DNA from: a virus
Direction: 5' to 3' (one strand)
UHGV virus genome: UHGV-1794807
Length of the DNA stretch: 10,961 nucleotides
Shown here one piece after another: positions 62-7,684 of this stretch. The notes beneath the pieces were generated by a model that searched no databases, was not told where the DNA came from, and saw nothing but the letters and a program-made list of their open reading frames with translations. Every line of letters begins with the position of its first letter. The first letter of the stretch is position 1. Made by a program: the position numbers and the translations under genes.

Positions 62-502
62 GTGATAACAGATGTCTGGAAATATAGGGGCAAATCCAGG
101 AACCCAGAAATACTTCCAGATCACTGGATGTATTACGCGATGCTTTTGTGTATCAGTTATGTTCTGAACAGGGTGATGGAGTTTATATTTCTGGCATCTT
201 CAGACAGATATAAAAAATATCTCAGTAAGAGAGATGAGGCTAAAGTAATTGTGGAGACTGAGCGCCTGTTCAATTCTCTGAGTATTCAGGAAAAAGAGGT
301 TTTAGCATTTGCTGTTATGGCAAATAACAAAATCGTACTTAAGCACGGCGATCCGGTCGCTTTATCTCTTATGAGAAAAGGCCTTCTCCATCGCTCAGGT
401 GTGACTTACAGCGCGTCAGGTAAAGAGAAATTTGTTATACCTGACGTCTGGTTCCATGAGTGTTATATGCGCTTTGCTGGTAAAGCTGATGAGCTAATTT
501 AG
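62..502 (+). CDS. Hypothetical protein convergent with N; one hydrophobic segment; occupies the position where lambda carries sieB (superinfection exclusion) but identity not established
   Basis: 146-codon ORF bounded by TAA at 59-61, GTG start at 62 (alternative in-frame ATG at 128); ends 22 bp before the stop of the leftward N-like gene. No motif recognised; synteny only. Confidence 0.45.
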   Translation: MITDVWKYRGKSRNPEILPDHWMYYAMLLCISYVLNRVMEFIFLASSDRYKKYLSKRDEAKVIVETERLFNSLSIQEKEVLAFAVMANNKIVLKHGDPVALSLMRKGLLHRSGVTYSASGKEKFVIPDVWFHECYMRFAGKADELI

Positions 503-523: not shown

Positions 524-907
524 TCATCTCGCCGTCAGTTGTTTTGATTTCCGGTATCCTGCTGCGTAAAGAGCTACATCTGGAAGACATACACCAGTTT
601 CTGGTTGCTTATGTCCAAACTCATTCGCGTACACAATGGCCGCTCTCTCCAGATTGCGTCTGTATTCTTTCTGTTGCCAGATCACGTCCTGTGCCATGAA
701 CTTAATTGGCTTAGCGTCTTCTATGCGCTCAGGCGTTTCGTGTTTACCTTTAGCCTGAATCTGTGCCCGACTGAGGGTAGGGCGATGAAGTTTCTCTGAA
801 CTGATAACCTCTTCACGAGCTTCAACACCATGTGCAATGGCTTGCGCCTTTAAACGTTCACGGCGACGAGCTGCTGATGAACCTTTGAAAGCTGTTCTGC
901 GTGTCAT
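524..907 (-). CDS. N: N-type transcription antitermination protein (non-lambda N, resembling N of phage 21/H-19B-type lambdoids)
   Basis: Translation from the internal Met begins MTRRTAFKGSSAARRRERLKAQA, an arginine-rich motif like lambda N (RRRERR). ATG at 905-907 is preceded by AGGAGG (914-919, minus strand), so the track ORF start at 955 is likely an upstream extension. Lies first on the pL transcript downstream of a boxB hairpin. Confidence 0.7.
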   Translation of the reverse strand: MTRRTAFKGSSAARRRERLKAQAIAHGVEAREEVISSEKLHRPTLSRAQIQAKGKHETPERIEDAKPIKFMAQDVIWQQKEYRRNLERAAIVYANEFGHKQPETGVCLPDVALYAAGYRKSKQLTAR

Positions 908-1022
908 GGTGACCTCCTGATGAACTTTGGTGATGTGGGCGGTAACCAGCCGCACAAGTCAGGGCCATCTTCACGTTTTACCCTTTCTCGCTTGCCACAT
1001 CCCAAAGTTCACTTTGGTTATC

Positions 1023-1348: not shown

Positions 1349-2392
1349 TTAAAGAATACTTGCCAGATACTTAAGTTGTCTTTGATATCGAGTAACCGAC
1401 TGGTTAACTTGTAACCTTTTCCCTTCACTTACTGTATGGAAGCGACCAACTTTTAGCTGTGATATTGGTATGCTTTCAGCCCCACTAATTTGCCCGCTTG
1501 ATACAAAATCATCTGTAACCACAATTGCTTTGCTAACATCTTCATCGGCAAAGAGATGACTGTATTTTTCAGCGATTTTTACAGCTCTCTCTATGTACAT
1601 TTGAGATGCGCGACCTGGTGTTGATGATTTACGGCTTTTTGAACCAGCCATTGTCATTACGATCGCTGCTACTTTTGGAGCCCCAAGCCCACCCGCACGC
1701 TCATTCCATAATACAAAATCTTTTGATTTATTTGCCAGCATTTCCATTGTGAGATGAAGTGACTCAATTGAGTGTTCATCTACGCGTACAGGGATAATCA
1801 ATGCCTCAGACGCGCACCATGCTAGGTGTGTTCCTCCAGCATAGAAGGGGCTTGTATCCATCAATAAAATTTCGCATTTTTTGTCTTTCGCTTCATCGTT
1901 CATTATTGCGCGAAGAGAATTTAATAGTGTTGATACTGCTTTTGGTTCTCCGCGAGATAGCGCTACTTGTAGTTGTTGATACATGCTTGATGGGAAAGCG
2001 AATAGCTCAGGATCACCTGGAATCGCATAACATGCCTTACCACCTTTAAAATCTGGGCAGAAATTACTTACTCGATATGAAATATCTTCTGGCTGCTCAC
2101 CAAAAGCTGGACCCAGCATTTTTGGTGTCAGTGCATTAGCTATTGTTACAACCGGTTTTTCACCACGCAATAGTGTCTCCGTTAAATTACATTGCGGGCA
2201 TAAGTCAGCCACTAATACGGAGTTACGTCGTGACAGCTCATAGGCGAGGTTGAATGTCATCGTGGACTTACCAACACCACCGCGCAGATTGGAAACTGCA
2301 TAACTTTTGAATTTTGGCCCGCCATCTACGACGTAACCTTCCTCAACAACTTGTGCATAGCGTGCCATTACTGACTCAACTACAGTGCTCAT
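1349..2392 (-). CDS. ParA/MinD-family (SIMIBI-class) P-loop ATPase, 347 aa, in the position of lambda rexA-rexB
   Basis: Deviant Walker A RGGVGKST (consensus KGGxGK[ST], first K replaced by R), ParA-like A' motif VLVADLCPQCN (compare ParA LIDLDPQGN), Walker B-like ILLMDTSP. Strong SD AAGGAGG 7 nt upstream of ATG. Flanked by terminators on both sides. Confidence 0.8.
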   Translation of the reverse strand: MSTVVESVMARYAQVVEEGYVVDGGPKFKSYAVSNLRGGVGKSTMTFNLAYELSRRNSVLVADLCPQCNLTETLLRGEKPVVTIANALTPKMLGPAFGEQPEDISYRVSNFCPDFKGGKACYAIPGDPELFAFPSSMYQQLQVALSRGEPKAVSTLLNSLRAIMNDEAKDKKCEILLMDTSPFYAGGTHLAWCASEALIIPVRVDEHSIESLHLTMEMLANKSKDFVLWNERAGGLGAPKVAAIVMTMAGSKSRKSSTPGRASQMYIERAVKIAEKYSHLFADEDVSKAIVVTDDFVSSGQISGAESIPISQLKVGRFHTVSEGKRLQVNQSVTRYQRQLKYLASIL

Positions 2393-2648: not shown

Positions 2649-3365
<717 letters not shown>

Positions 3366-3462: not shown

Positions 3463-3663
3463 ATGGAACAACGCATAACCCTGAAAGATTATGCAATACG
3501 CTTTGGGCAAACCAAGACGGCTAAAGATCTCGGCGTATATCAAAGCGCGATTAACAAGGCCATTCATGCAGGCCGAAAGATTTTTTTAACTATAAACGCT
3601 GATGGAAGCGTTTATGCGGAAGAAATAAAGCCCTTCCCAAGTAACAAAAAAACAGCTGCATAA
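3463..3663 (+). CDS. cro: Cro repressor (lambda-type)
   Basis: 66 aa [41 protein letters not shown]..., near-identical to lambda Cro as recalled. Strong SD; first gene on the pR transcript. Confidence 0.95.
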
Positions 3664-3800: not shown

Positions 3801-4097
3801 ATGACACAAGCAAGTTACAGCAAGCCAACACAGCGAGAAATTGATCGCGCAGAAACTGATTTACTCATCAACCTGTCAACGCTTACCCAGCGTGGTCTGG
3901 CAAAGATGATTGGCTGTCATGAATCGAAGATAAGCAGAACGGACTGGAGATTTATTGCTTCGGTCTTGTGTGCTTTCGGAATGGCATCAGACATCAGTCC
4001 GATTAGCAGGGCTTTTAAGTATGCGCTTGATGAAATCACAAAGAAAAAATCCCCGGCCGCCACCGAGGATTTTAAGCAAATTGATATGCAATTCTGA
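3801..4097 (+). CDS. cII: cII-like transcriptional activator (non-lambda allele)
   Basis: 98 aa, same size and position as lambda cII (second gene after cro). Central segment is HTH-like and the C-terminal [18 protein letters not shown] resembles lambda cII KKRPAATERSEQIQMEF. Confidence 0.7.
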
Positions 4098-4129: not shown

Positions 4130-4276
4130 ATGACAAAACAACTCAGTCCTTACCAGGACAAAATTCACAAACACATACTACGTGATCGCTTCCTGTCCAG
4201 CTTCAAGCAGCCTGGTCGATTCCGGGCTGAGTTGGAAAAAGTGAAGCTGATGCAGAAGGAGAAAGGTCATGAGTAA
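4130..4276 (+). CDS. Small hypothetical protein (48 aa) between cII and the initiator gene
   Basis: ATG at 4130 with GGAG 5 nt upstream (4121-4124). Translation [48 protein letters not shown]; stop overlaps the start of the next gene by 8 nt. Below the ORF-track size threshold. Confidence 0.4.
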
Positions 4277-5168
4277 CATATCTAATCTAGCCGAAGCCAG
4301 AGAGGCCAGAAGGCTACAACAACCGCATCAAAGCAGCGGTAAGGGGTATGCCTTGCTGCACCGTAAAATTATGGATGTGCCGTTTTACAAGGACGCAGAA
4401 GCAGCGCATCTGTGGGTTCACTTAATCCTCAAAGCAAAGCATACGCCTGAGTATGTAATGACTGACGCAGGAGAAATTCTGGTAGGCAGAGGGAAGCTAC
4501 TTGGCGGTAGAAACTCTCTGGCGTTTGAAACAGGACTCAAACCAGATCGCGTTCAGTACCTGCTTAGAAAGTTCAAAAAACTCGGCATGATTGACTGGGT
4601 TTCACACGGTAAATTCTCAGTTTTCTCGGTAGAGAAATATGACGATTATCAGTCAAATTTTGTACCAGCAGATTACCAGCAAATTACCACCTCAAAGCCA
4701 GCAATACCAATGCCTGCAAGCAATACTGTACCAGCAGATTACCAGCAAATTACCACAGATAAAGAATATAATAATATTATCTCTAATACTGACGTATTAG
4801 AGAGTGCCACAGCAGACAAAAAGTCTGACAAGAAAAAACCTTCCGTCAGCTGTCAGGATGTTGTCGATGCTTACCACGAAATCCTTCCTGAAGCGCCAAG
4901 AATCCGCGCACTGAATGACAAGCGTAAAAACCAGATCCGAACGTTCTGGCGCAAAGCCGGAGTGATAACCCGCCAGCTTGACGGGCATGGGTTCACGATG
5001 CAGGACTGGAGAAATTATTTGAGCTACGTAGGCGAAAATTGCCGATGGATGTTCGAAGAACGCCCAAACCATCAACGCGGAACCGTCTGGCACAAAAAGG
5101 GATTTGATTTCCTGCTTAACGACAATACCTACCTGAAAGTTCGTGAGGGTGAACACGATGACCGATAA
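4269..5168 (+). CDS. Replication initiator, lambda O-like / P22 gp18-like origin-binding protein
   Basis: 299 aa directly upstream of and overlapping the DnaB-type helicase gene. Contains an internal iteron array plus AT-rich tract as in lambda O/ori. SD AAGGAG 7 nt before ATG. No sequence identity to lambda O was recognised; call is by architecture. Confidence 0.6.
4662..4790. repeat. Candidate replication origin: two identical 29-bp repeats (four ACCAGCARATT iterons) followed by an AT-rich tract
   Basis: GTACCAGCAGATTACCAGCAAATTACCAC occurs identically at 4662-4690 and 4728-4756; each holds two ACCAGCA[G/A]ATT half-repeats. Followed by agataaagaatataataatattatctctaatact (4757-4790). Encodes the duplicated peptide [10 protein letters not shown]. 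Confidence 0.7.
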
Positions 5169-7623
5169 TTTTTATGCGCCGCCCCATAGCATCGAGGCAG
5201 AGCAGGCGGTGATTGGTGGATTGCTTCTGGATGATGACAGCAGTGAGCGCGTCCAGAAAGTTCTGGCGATGCTGAAGCCTGATTCATTTTACAGCCGACC
5301 ACACAAAATCCTTTTCGAAGAAATAACCAGAATGCACCGGGAGCAAAAGCCAGTAGATGGCCTGACGCTTTTCGATGAACTGGAGCGTAAATCGTTAACG
5401 GCGTCTGTTGGCGGTTTTGCTTATATCTCTGAGATCGCAAAGAACACGCCAAGCGCAGCAAACATCGTTGCCTATGCAATGCAGGTTCGTGAAACCGCAA
5501 TGGAACGCTACGCCATCAACCGCATGACTGAAGCGACGGAATTGCTCTATTCCCGCAACGGAATGACTGCAACGCAGAAGTACGAAGCTATTCAGGCGAT
5601 TTTCACGCAACTGACAGATCATGCAAAAACCGGATCGCGTCGCGGCCTTCGTTCATTTGGTGAGGTCATGGAAGACTGGGTTAGCGACCTTGAGAAGCGA
5701 TTTGACCCGTCAGGCGAACAACGAGGAATGAGCACAGGGATCCCATCGCTGGACAGGATGCTGTCACCGAAAGGTCTGGTGAAAGGCTCTCTGTTTGTCA
5801 TTGGCGCTCGCCCTAAGATGGGGAAAGCGCAACCGCTTAATTCACGCATTTTGCTTGCTGATGGTTCATGGACAACATTTCGTGACGTATGTGTTGGAGA
5901 TTCCCTAGCATCAGTGGATGGACAACCATCATTCGTGTCTGGAGTTTTTCCTCAAGGGGAGCGAGATATTTACCGAGTTACGTTCTCTGACGGAAGAACC
6001 GTTGATTGCGCGGATGATCATTTGTGGGAAATTCATAGTAACCGTATTACCGGTGGCGTTGATGTTGTAGACACCTGCCGCCTACGGGACATGATGGAAT
6101 GCGTTCGCTATCAAAGCCGCATTCATGTTCCTGGTATTAGCGGTGACTTCGGATTGCCTGTTGATTTAGGGATTAGCCCATGGCTGTTAGGTGCGTTACT
6201 TGGCGATGGAAATCTTGCAGGTACGCCACGAATCAGCATGACGGAACCATACATCATTGAGCGAGTAAGATCTGAAGTGGGTGACGATATTGAAGTCAGA
6301 CATGTTTCTGGCTGCGATTACTCCCTATCTCACAAGTTTAGCCGCAAATTATCTCTTACGCGGGTTATGCAACGGATTGGTATCTACGGCCGGATGTCAG
6401 AGATTAAAATTATCCCGGATATTATTTTTTCTGCTGATAAGCAAACTCGTATTGATGTTCTATGCGGATTACTTGAAACCGATGGTTGGGTTGAAGGAAA
6501 TAATGCCCTGCGCTTTAGCTCGGCAAGCAAGTTCCTGTCAGATGGTGTAAAGCGGCTGGTGCATTCTCTTGGTGGCGTGTGTCGTATGACAACCAAACAG
6601 GAGCCGAAATTCAGTTATAAGGGAGAAATGCGCAAAGGTATGGATGCCCATATTTGCGCAATCAGGTTGCCTGATGAGGTTCTATCACACATAAAATCTC
6701 CACGCCTGAAGCAAAAATTCACTGCAAAACGCATCAAAACAAGTGCGCCTGTTATCACGTCGGTTGAGTATATTGGACGTGAAGAGTGCATTTGCATCAT
6801 GGTATCCCACGAGAGACATTTGTATGCAACTGACGGATACATTCTAACCCACAACACCACGCTATACAGCCAGATGGCAATCAACTGCGCAGTGTATGAG
6901 AAAAAGCCCGCTCTGATATTCAGCCTTGAAATGCCAGGTGATCAGATACTGGAAAAACTGGTAGGGCAGAAGTCTGGTGTTAACCCGAATATTTTTTACC
7001 TTCCGGCGACAAATGACGCCGATGACGGCTATCAGGGTGATTACGATGGTGACTTCAACAGGGCGATCGAAACAGCCAATCGCTTGAGTGAAATCGACAT
7101 GCTTTACATCGACGACACGCCGGGATTATCTCTGGCTCAAATCGTCAGCGAAAGCCGTCGAATCAAGCGAGAAAAAGGATGTGTTGGCATGATTCTGGTC
7201 GATTACCTGACACTAATGACCGCTGAGAAGGCCGATCGCAACGACCTTGCTTACGGCATGATCACCAAAGGACTGAAGAACCTTGCCAAAGAGCTTGATT
7301 GCGTTGTTGTGCTTCTGACGCAGCTTAACCGCGCACTGGAAAGCCGAACCAATAAACGCCCATTACCAAGTGACTCGCGCGATACAGGGCAGATTGAACA
7401 GGATTGCGATTATTGGGTGGGGATCCATCGTGAAGGTGCTTTTGATGACAGTGTTCCACCTGGTGAAACCGAACTAATCCTTCGTCTCAATCGTCATGGC
7501 AATACCGGCACGGTGTATTGCATTCAGGCAAATGGCGCTATTTATGACACAGACCAACAGTCTGCTGAAATGCGCCGCCGTGAACGCGAGGAGCCGCAGT
7601 CCAAGAAGAAAGGAGGATTCTGA
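5158..7623 (+). CDS. DnaB-family replicative helicase precursor interrupted by an intein
   Basis: N-terminus PPHSIEAEQAVIGGLLLDD...FYSRPHKILFEEI...GGFAYISEIAKNTPSAANIVAYA closely parallels E. coli DnaB. Walker A GARPKMGK is split from TTLYSQ...PALIFSLEMP by 343 aa. C-terminal motifs LTQLNRALESR and DSRDTGQIEQDCD are present. ATG at 5158 chosen over the track GTG at 5143 (GAGGG 8 nt upstream). Confidence 0.9.
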   Translation: MTDNFYAPPHSIEAEQAVIGGLLLDDDSSERVQKVLAMLKPDSFYSRPHKILFEEITRMHREQKPVDGLTLFDELERKSLTASVGGFAYISEIAKNTPSAANIVAYAMQVRETAMERYAINRMTEATELLYSRNGMTATQKYEAIQAIFTQLTDHAKTGSRRGLRSFGEVMEDWVSDLEKRFDPSGEQRGMSTGIPSLDRMLSPKGLVKGSLFVIGARPKMGKAQPLNSRILLADGSWTTFRDVCVGDSLASVDGQPSFVSGVFPQGERDIYRVTFSDGRTVDCADDHLWEIHSNRITGGVDVVDTCRLRDMMECVRYQSRIHVPGISGDFGLPVDLGISPWLLGALLGDGNLAGTPRISMTEPYIIERVRSEVGDDIEVRHVSGCDYSLSHKFSRKLSLTRVMQRIGIYGRMSEIKIIPDIIFSADKQTRIDVLCGLLETDGWVEGNNALRFSSASKFLSDGVKRLVHSLGGVCRMTTKQEPKFSYKGEMRKGMDAHICAIRLPDEVLSHIKSPRLKQKFTAKRIKTSAPVITSVEYIGREECICIMVSHERHLYATDGYILTHNTTLYSQMAINCAVYEKKPALIFSLEMPGDQILEKLVGQKSGVNPNIFYLPATNDADDGYQGDYDGDFNRAIETANRLSEIDMLYIDDTPGLSLAQIVSESRRIKREKGCVGMILVDYLTLMTAEKADRNDLAYGMITKGLKNLAKELDCVVVLLTQLNRALESRTNKRPLPSDSRDTGQIEQDCDYWVGIHREGAFDDSVPPGETELILRLNRHGNTGTVYCIQANGAIYDTDQQSAEMRRREREEPQSKKKGGF
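5827..6855 (+). mobile_element. Intein with LAGLIDADG homing-endonuclease domain, inserted in the helicase P-loop between GK and TT
   Basis: Removing 5827-6855 restores GARPKMGK-TT (E. coli DnaB ARPSMGKTT). Block A-like start AQPLNSRILLADGSW, two LAGLIDADG motifs LLGALLGDGNLAG (about 6178-6220) and LCGLLETDGWVEGN (about 6460-6500), C-terminal ILTHN followed by +1 Thr. Confidence 0.75.
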
Positions 7624-7651
7624 TGACCATCTACATCACTGAGCTAATAAC

Positions 7652-7684
7652 AGGCCTGCTGGTAATCGCAGGCCTTTTTATTTG
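7652..7684 (+). terminator. Intrinsic terminator-like hairpin after the helicase gene (tR2-position analogue)
   Basis: Perfect 8-bp stem AGGCCUGC/GCAGGCCU (7652-7659, 7668-7675), 8-nt loop, then UUUUUAUUU. Overlaps a possible 30-codon ORF (see findings), so it may be coding rather than a terminator. Confidence 0.5.

Follow-up and report, generated by a model that had tools for sequence, protein, structure and literature searches.

Introduction

Class 3 inteins are defined by a position 1 that is not Cys, Ser or Thr, together with a co-varying triplet of Trp at B:12, Cys at F:4 and Thr at G:5 (WCT); their +1 residue is usually Ser or Thr, and most of them sit in P-loops of helicase-type ATPases (Tori et al. 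2010, PMC2807308). Here we describe an intein that very probably belongs to this class, in a 10,961-nucleotide (nt) stretch of the UHGV virus genome UHGV-1794807, called the window below, which is the early region of a lambdoid prophage of Escherichia coli. The intein lies at nt 5827-6855 within a gene for a DnaB-like replicative helicase. Judged from its sequence, we consider it with good confidence to be a class 3 intein that is able to splice and that houses a LAGLIDADG homing endonuclease, inserted at the helicase P-loop site GK/T; its splicing chemistry, its endonuclease activity and the endonuclease target are what we infer from this.

The prototype of the class, MP-Be from mycobacteriophage Bethlehem, has been reported to splice (PMC2807308). 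We recovered it as an insertion in Bethlehem gp11 (our locus L005:7680-8702), upstream of the portal gene, and identify this insertion with the prototype because the published numbering fits exactly (Ser62, His65, Trp67, Lys319, Cys320, Ile321, Asp324, His328, Phe330, Thr339, His340 and Asn341). The same insertion we take to be the terminase intein TerL1-c 'gp10' of Kelley 2016, an equation that is our own assumption. For the Bethlehem TerL1-c intein both splicing and endonuclease activity have been reported (PMC5050341). Two other Bethlehem proteins were considered as the source of MP-Be and rejected: the DnaB-like gp62 contains no intein, and gp52 carries a class 1 intein, with a tblastn search of the window intein against that region finding nothing.

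A second point of reference is the DnaBi1 intein of Mycobacterium smegmatis (Protein Data Bank, PDB, entry 6bs8), which occupies the same P-loop site of DnaB and in which Cys118 is the experimentally proven catalytic nucleophile (PMC6195587). In Shiga toxin (Stx) phages of E. coli, an intein has been placed at residues 372-702 of the primase-helicase P protein of phages 24B and Min27 (Smith et al. 2012, PMC3430580); that paper leaves its class unstated.

Results and discussion

Intein-less alleles define the insertion to the base

The helicase precursor gene spans 5143..7623 on the plus strand (826 codons from a GTG at 5143, compared with an ATG at 5158 in the RefSeq annotation of sister copies), with N-extein, intein and C-extein in a single frame. 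The open reading frame matches Pfam DnaB (1.7e-30) and DnaB_C (3.1e-53); the DnaB_C match is interrupted, and weak matches to LAGLIDADG_3 and Hom_end_hint fall between its parts. The exteins pass the NCBIfam model TIGR03600 phage_DnaB in two stretches (554 bits, cut-off 498.65). The N-extein (5143..5826, plus strand) comprises the DnaB N-terminal domain and the start of the ATPase domain and ends in ...GARPKMGK, the first half of Walker A, while the C-extein (6856..7623, plus strand) starts with Thr+1 (ACC, 6856-6858) and, up to the stop codon, supplies what remains of the DnaB C-terminal ATPase domain. Thr+1 is both the Walker A Thr and the predicted second nucleophile of splicing.

When the precursor is aligned to the intein-less P protein of VT2-Sakai, whose exteins are 99% identical, there is one gap, covering precursor residues 229-571, or nt 5827-6855 of the plus strand: an intein of 343 amino acids (aa) running from A1 to T341-H342-N343. 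The insertion point is GARPKMGK/intein/TTLYSQ, after the Walker A Lys and before the Walker A Thr, which is site b (P-loop) of DnaB as defined in PMC4760082, PMC5050341 and PMC6195587. In the DNA, ...ATGGGGAAA/GCGCAA...CACAAC/ACCACGCTA is the sequence of the occupied site and ATGGGGAAA/ACGACGCTA that of the empty site in VT2-Sakai (slashes mark the junctions), which leaves no room to shift the boundary to either side. Since the intein-less alleles fix both junctions, residue 1 of the intein is Ala, residue -1 is Lys and residue +1 is Thr. An earlier note on this DNA had proposed a 343-aa insertion splitting the GK/TT of Walker A, with Ala first and Thr at +1, and the protein and DNA junctions bear this out exactly.

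That note had also considered that the boundary might be miscalled and conceal a Cys or Ser at the true position 1; we looked for one and found none. We therefore reject the idea of a standard class 1 intein starting at Cys or Ser, to which we give next to no credence: it draws on the prior that most inteins start with these residues, whereas both junctions are set to the exact base by the intein-less alleles, and taking the nearest Ser (S6) or the nearest Cys (C22) as residue 1 would fail to regenerate the GK-TT of these alleles.

The residues of class 3 splicing are in place

The splicing blocks can be located along the plus strand from one end of the intein to the other. Block A (5827..5865, AQPLNSRILLADG) begins with the non-nucleophilic Ala1, in an AQPL that is the family consensus N-terminus. 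Block B (5992..6033, GRTVDCADDHLWEI) holds His65 (B:10, nt 6019-6021) and the Trp of the WCT triplet, Trp67 (B:12, nt 6025-6027). In block F (6781..6828, EECICIMVSHERHLYA) lies Cys323 (F:4, nt 6793-6795), the predicted initiating nucleophile, accompanied by the conserved Ile324 and aromatic Tyr333 (F:15), while Cys321 (F:2) is variable in the family. Block G (6835..6855) reads GYILTHN and contains the WCT Thr341 (G:5), the penultimate His342 and the terminal Asn343.

In a HMMER alignment to M. smegmatis DnaBi1, Cys323 falls on Cys118, and HLW (His65-Leu66-Trp67) on HQW (H65/W67); because of the former match we assign the second Cys of EECICIM, Cys323, to F:4, and Cys321 to F:2. With MP-Be, a MAFFT alignment places H65, W67, C323, I324, Y333, T341, H342 and N343 on H65, W67, C320, I321, F330, T339, H340 and N341, residues of the prototype that matter by mutagenesis (PMC2807308). 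When the window intein and the prototype are aligned with MAFFT together with the sister intein of Stx2a phages (see below) and relatives in other host proteins, His65, Trp67, Cys323, Ile324, Thr341, His342 and Asn343 are invariant. With W, C and T placed in this way on experimentally characterised class 3 inteins, and with Ala1, Trp at B:12, Cys at F:4, Thr at G:5 and Thr+1 all present, the class 3 (WCT-type) assignment suggested earlier is upheld. The HLW that had been seen in a block B-like segment is His65-Leu66-Trp67, and among the Cys residues seen in a block F-like segment the catalytic candidate is the second one; the Thr had been counted as three residues before the Asn, and here a correction is needed, as Thr341 is two before Asn343, i.e. 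the third-last residue.

An Ala at position 1 also occurs in KlbA inteins (PMC2807308), and a class 2 (KlbA-like) route might be imagined in which no block F thioester is formed and residue +1 itself attacks the N-terminal junction. We regard this as very improbable. Class 2 inteins have no WCT triplet and use Cys+1 (PMC2807308), whereas the window intein has a full, family-invariant WCT triplet and Thr at +1, a residue that as a nucleophile is ill suited to attacking an amide directly.

Conservation across a very large family

Searched exhaustively with HMMER, 1.84 billion cluster representatives yielded 15,504 proteins with E <= 1e-3, of which 2,760 reach E <= 1e-30 (best E = 4e-133); many are helicases of about 800 aa in which the match begins near residue 210-230. 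The nearest cluster representative is 58% identical to the window intein. A chance match is excluded by this whole-length homology to thousands of intein-bearing proteins.

For residue counts we used 155 full-length intein copies taken from the best 150 cluster representatives. His65, Trp67, Cys323, Thr341 and Asn343 are each present in 155/155 copies, and His342, and with it THN, in 154/155; the aromatic residue at F:15 is Tyr in 145 and Phe in 10. The +1 residue is Thr in 136, Ser in 18 and Cys in 1, and residue -1 is Lys in 135. The first residue is Ala in 119/155, followed by Gln (131), Pro (132) and Leu (133) at residues 2-4, which gives the AQPL consensus. An Ala start is thus the norm of a very large family and no anomaly, although the earlier note had singled it out.

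A word-indexed protein search gave 28 matches, with no full-length copy of the precursor among them, and showed the same type of intein at P-loop-like sites of PhoH-like, UvrD-like and other ATPases. Several of the metagenomic proteins P0034-P0042 and P0053 carry 2-4 copies of this intein type per polypeptide; in one, copies are found at both a GK/T P-loop and a PhoH-like YMRGR/T site.

A Hint domain split by a LAGLIDADG endonuclease

An AlphaFold2 model of the intein, built on an alignment of 21 sequences, has a predicted local distance difference test score (pLDDT) of 90.8 and a predicted template modelling score (pTM) of 0.90. In this confident model the predicted fold is a Hint domain, here of class 3 type, which is built from the N- and C-terminal segments (blocks A, B, F and G) and split by a LAGLIDADG homing-endonuclease domain. 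When the model was searched against the PDB with Foldseek, the whole chain matched bifunctional inteins, namely PI-SceI (template modelling score, TM, 0.73-0.75), TliVMA and PI-PfuI; the Hint domain matched the class 3 mini-inteins 6bs8 (target TM 0.85) and 6rix (0.81), and the endonuclease domain matched I-DmoI and I-Tsp061I, in keeping with the alpha-beta-beta-alpha-beta-beta-alpha type of domain that goes with two LAGLIDADG motifs. The Foldseek matches to inteins have a probability of 1.00, and phmmer also finds matches to solved inteins. The Pfam matches are weaker, at 19.2 bits for Hom_end_hint against a cut-off of 32.1, and 22.3 bits for LAGLIDADG_3, just below the cut-off of 22.5.

Both LAGLIDADG motifs described in the earlier note are found with their acidic residues kept: LLGALLGDGNL (aa 120-130, 6184..6216, plus strand) with Asp127, and LCGLLETDGWV (aa 212-222, 6460..6492, plus strand) with Asp219. 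Among the relatives, the acidic residue is Asp in 123/155 at the first position and in 152/155 at the second.

Comparison with described inteins

The window intein resembles MP-Be over its entire length (343 vs 341 aa): both combine a Hint domain with a LAGLIDADG endonuclease, begin with a non-nucleophilic residue, share the His65/Trp67 numbering, have Cys-Ile in block F (C323-I324 vs C320-I321) and an aromatic residue at F:15, and end in THN followed by Thr+1. They differ in that only 25% of residues are identical, residue 1 is Pro in MP-Be and Ala here, and MP-Be sits in another host protein, at a site after ...SQDQ rather than in a GK/T P-loop, and in an actinobacteriophage rather than an enterobacterial lambdoid prophage.

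M. smegmatis DnaBi1 and the DnaB-1 intein of Mycobacterium chimaera (6rix/6riy) are closer in their location. They share with the window intein the host protein family, the P-loop site, Ala1, His65, Trp67, the block F Cys and THN, with 27-29% identity over the N-terminal 102 alignment columns for 6bs8 and 6rix. In contrast, these two are mini-inteins (about 139-145 aa) from which the endonuclease has been lost; they have Ser at +1 and Asp62 at B:7, and reside in a cellular dnaB gene and not in a prophage, and the redox partner Cys48 is absent from the window intein.

A further relative is a sister intein in Stx2a phages (BBL33627.1, phage Stx2a F578; Escherichia phage TL-2011a), 46% identical over the full length and inserted at the same GK/T site. 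It too is found in lambdoid phages of E. coli and has A1, HLW, a CLCIM block F, THN, Thr+1 and a LAGLIDADG endonuclease, although its host is a helicase of different sequence (F578, L003:2398-4791). Of 5426 complete E. coli genomes, 30 contain the sister, as do about 50 Stx2a phage records, compared with 18 genomes and no phage record for the window intein. The sister is common among O157:H7 and O121 phages of the Stx2a-converting kind, with an HNH endonuclease gene just downstream.

The 24B/Min27 intein was compared by its published description. It likewise lies in a replication protein of a lambdoid Stx phage of E. coli, but its host is a TOPRIM primase fused to a gp4d-type helicase, and its position is another one. 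PI-SceI (VMA1) and the other class 1 bifunctional inteins share the Hint domain with an inserted LAGLIDADG endonuclease; they differ by their class 1 chemistry (Cys1, Asp at F:4) and are only 14-16% identical, and PI-SceI has an extra DNA-recognition region.

Intact frames and recent transfer argue for an intein that splices

The window intein was always chromosomal in the 18/5426 complete E. coli genomes that contain it; its N-extein allele is present in 380 genomes, so that about 5% of alleles are occupied. We compared 15 of the 18 genome copies with that of the window. In 16/16 a single frame stays open through both junctions, free of stops and frameshifts. The copies differ at 13 sites of the intein, 7 of them synonymous and 6 nonsynonymous, giving a per-site nonsynonymous/synonymous ratio of about 0.26 (240 synonymous and 789 nonsynonymous sites). 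None of the changes affects a catalytic or LAGLIDADG acidic residue, and the codon of Thr341 has changed synonymously, from ACC to ACT, in two copies. The variation thus looks constrained, which is supportive, not decisive. At window position 6376 (intein codon 184, in the endonuclease domain) the window has Ile (ATT) where all 15 other copies have Leu (CTT), a substitution private to the window's source.

Stronger evidence comes from the transfer of the intein between helicase alleles. In E. coli ET846 (L006:838-3264) and ET791 (L020), the intein is 99.5% identical at the nt level (5/1029 nt differ), whereas the exteins share only 68-75% of their nt, differ in length and can be aligned only in part; the frame there has 818 codons. 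As a near-identical intein sits in divergent alleles, recent homing is indicated, if indirectly; an active endonuclease that had homed recently would leave such a pattern, which is difficult to explain with an insertion that interrupts an essential phage gene and does not splice. We also compared the divergent alleles for a co-conversion tract beside the intein: they are identical for only 12 nt upstream and 8 nt downstream, a comparison that is uninformative because these flanks are conserved P-loop coding sequence.

Some further observations concern these alleles. Downstream of the helicase, ET846/ET791 have DUF4406 and Ea22-like genes, unlike the window, and a further match to the intein lies at another place in the ET846 chromosome. 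The codon of Thr+1 is ACC in both intein-bearing allele types and ACG in the intein-less Sakai allele; ACC may have come in by co-conversion, or it may shield the occupied site from the endonuclease.

The earlier note had raised the alternative that the intein is splicing-defective or decaying, in which case Walker A would stay split, the gene would in effect be a pseudogene and the prophage would be unable to replicate on its own. The absence of an N-terminal nucleophile could be taken to point this way, as could the annotation: in all 15 copies that we inspected, RefSeq (annotated with PGAP) lists the flanks as 'DnaB-like helicase N-terminal / C-terminal domain-containing protein', two partial pseudogenes ('incomplete; partial in the middle of a contig'), and gives the intein no annotation (e.g. 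L002:5332-7797). Yet all residues needed for class 3 splicing are present and family-invariant, and the pseudogene calls stem from the annotation pipeline, which aligns to intein-less helicases, and not from any DNA lesion. In the one genome inspected for the Stx2a sister (L009:1898-4291), the annotation likewise consists of three pseudogene fragments, which partly overlap the intein. A truncated intein does exist in one related protein, P0002 (565 aa; NCBI and Logan; on a contig of 235,726 base pairs), which has the helicase N-extein and the first ~106 intein residues (99% identical) and then, after ...GISGDFG, switches abruptly to an unrelated phage protein (Pfam PF11134); this is probably a deletion or rearrangement that destroyed one prophage copy. 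In view of the intact frames, the synonymous bias of the variation, and the recent entry of the same intein into a divergent allele, a spread hardly to be expected of an insertion that disrupts an essential phage gene and fails to splice, we consider a defective intein with a dead helicase unlikely.

Several points nonetheless weigh against a splicing-competent intein, and one is its distribution. Among 87 phage records with the helicase allele of the window at 95-99% nt identity (98.6-98.8% for the 30 listed), the insertion is found in 0/87, which also favours a defective intein, and as a result there is no direct sign that an intein-bearing phage of the window's type forms virions. The selection test is weak because near-identical copies carry too few substitutions. 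Block B:7 is Ala62 here, compared with Asp62 in M. smegmatis DnaBi1 and Ser62 in MP-Be, although this position varies across the family. Moreover, when W, C and T were grafted together with C1A onto the class 1 gp41-1 intein, the result was cleavage and no splicing (Beyer et al., PMC7664689), so the presence of the WCT motif alone is no proof of splicing. As the motif is insufficient in itself, our case for class 3 splicing rests on the whole-length homology to natural class 3 inteins and on the evolutionary evidence.

With regard to viability, the genomes with the Stx2a sister include a strain named WG5::TT12A (L009), which by its name is probably a laboratory lysogen made with a phage from the O157:H7 strain TT12A. 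If so, phages with such a helicase intein would be viable. Our literature search found no published description of strain WG5::TT12A.

Proposed splicing and homing mechanism

Because experimentally studied class 3 inteins follow the same steps, we propose by likeness the following course of splicing for the window intein. The thiol of Cys323, aided by His65 and Thr341 and packed by Trp67, would attack the Lys(-1)-Ala1 bond, giving a branched intermediate with a block F thioester. The N-extein would then be transferred to the hydroxyl of Thr+1, and cyclisation of Asn343 would free the intein. A final O-to-N acyl shift would restore the native GK-TT of Walker A and an active helicase, the same as that of intein-less alleles. 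The freed intein would cut intein-less helicase alleles near AAGATGGGGAAA/ACGACGCT and be copied into them by repair (homing).

One might further speculate that the intein is competent but splices conditionally, with reversible oxidation or metal binding at active-site cysteines acting as a post-translational switch on prophage replication. In M. smegmatis DnaBi1, which occupies the same P-loop site, H2O2 causes a reversible block by way of a disulfide between Cys48 and Cys118 (PMC6195587), reversible inhibition by zinc is reported in PMC7360933, and in the window intein Cys61 (B:6; Cys in 98/155 relatives) and Cys321 (F:2; 35/155) are near the catalytic Cys323 in the sequence. However, the Cys48 partner of the M. 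smegmatis intein is not conserved, Ile48 being aligned here, and Cys321 is variable. It is simplest to see the intein as a selfish element with constitutive splicing, and we see only a slim chance of a switch. If there were one, helicase activation and replication after induction would depend on the redox or metal state of E. coli, and the prophage would offer a genetically tractable lambda-like system to test host regulation by inteins.

Other genes of the window

Upstream of the helicase gene, the window contains genes for SieB (62-502, plus strand), an N-like antiterminator (524-955, minus strand), a ParA/MinD-like ATPase of 347 aa (1349-2392, minus strand; Pfam AAA_31, CbiA), a cI-type repressor (2649-3362, minus strand), Cro (3463-3663), CII (3801-4097) and an O-like initiator (4269-5168). 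The ParA/MinD-like P-loop ATPase gene lies between the N-like gene and cI, a position taken in lambda by rexAB, and could be superinfection-exclusion or defence cargo. Within the O-like gene, direct repeats of about 35 nt (4656-4756, plus strand; AAT..TGTACCAGCAGATTACCAGCAAATTACCAC), 94% identical and 66 nt apart, encode a repeated peptide; they resemble the iteron-type origin repeats that sit inside lambdoid O genes. Just 3' of the helicase stop codon, a GC-rich inverted repeat with a T run (CAGGCCTGCTGGTAATCGCAGGCCTTTTT; 7650-7680, plus strand) looks like an intrinsic terminator. The helicase gene is followed by genes for DUF7301, NinB and Dam, and then by open reading frames matching NinG, NinH and a Ser/Thr phosphatase (RefSeq names at the related locus L002).

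Implications

Mechanistically there is nothing new in this intein, a class 3 intein of the standard kind that occupies DnaB site b (cf. PMC4760082, PMC5050341). Class 3 inteins in helicase P-loops of phages and bacteria have been described since 2010, and inteins in replication proteins of E. coli Stx phages are already on record (PMC3430580). Our literature search, which covered ground outside InBase and the tables of Tori et al. 2010 and of Tori and Perler 2011 (PMC3133030), found no paper on the window intein or its Stx2a sister. It has been stated that inteins seem to be missing in E. coli (PMC5050341). For the prophages of E. coli this does not hold, with the window intein in 18/5426 and the sister in 30/5426 genomes.

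The annotation of these genes as pseudogenes has a practical consequence: calls of prophage completeness that rely on an intact replication module could wrongly score such prophages as defective, including Stx2a phages with the sister intein. Finally, a native lambda-like E. coli host with a full-length class 3 intein and an apparently mobile endonuclease would be a handy model for homing and for any conditional splicing.

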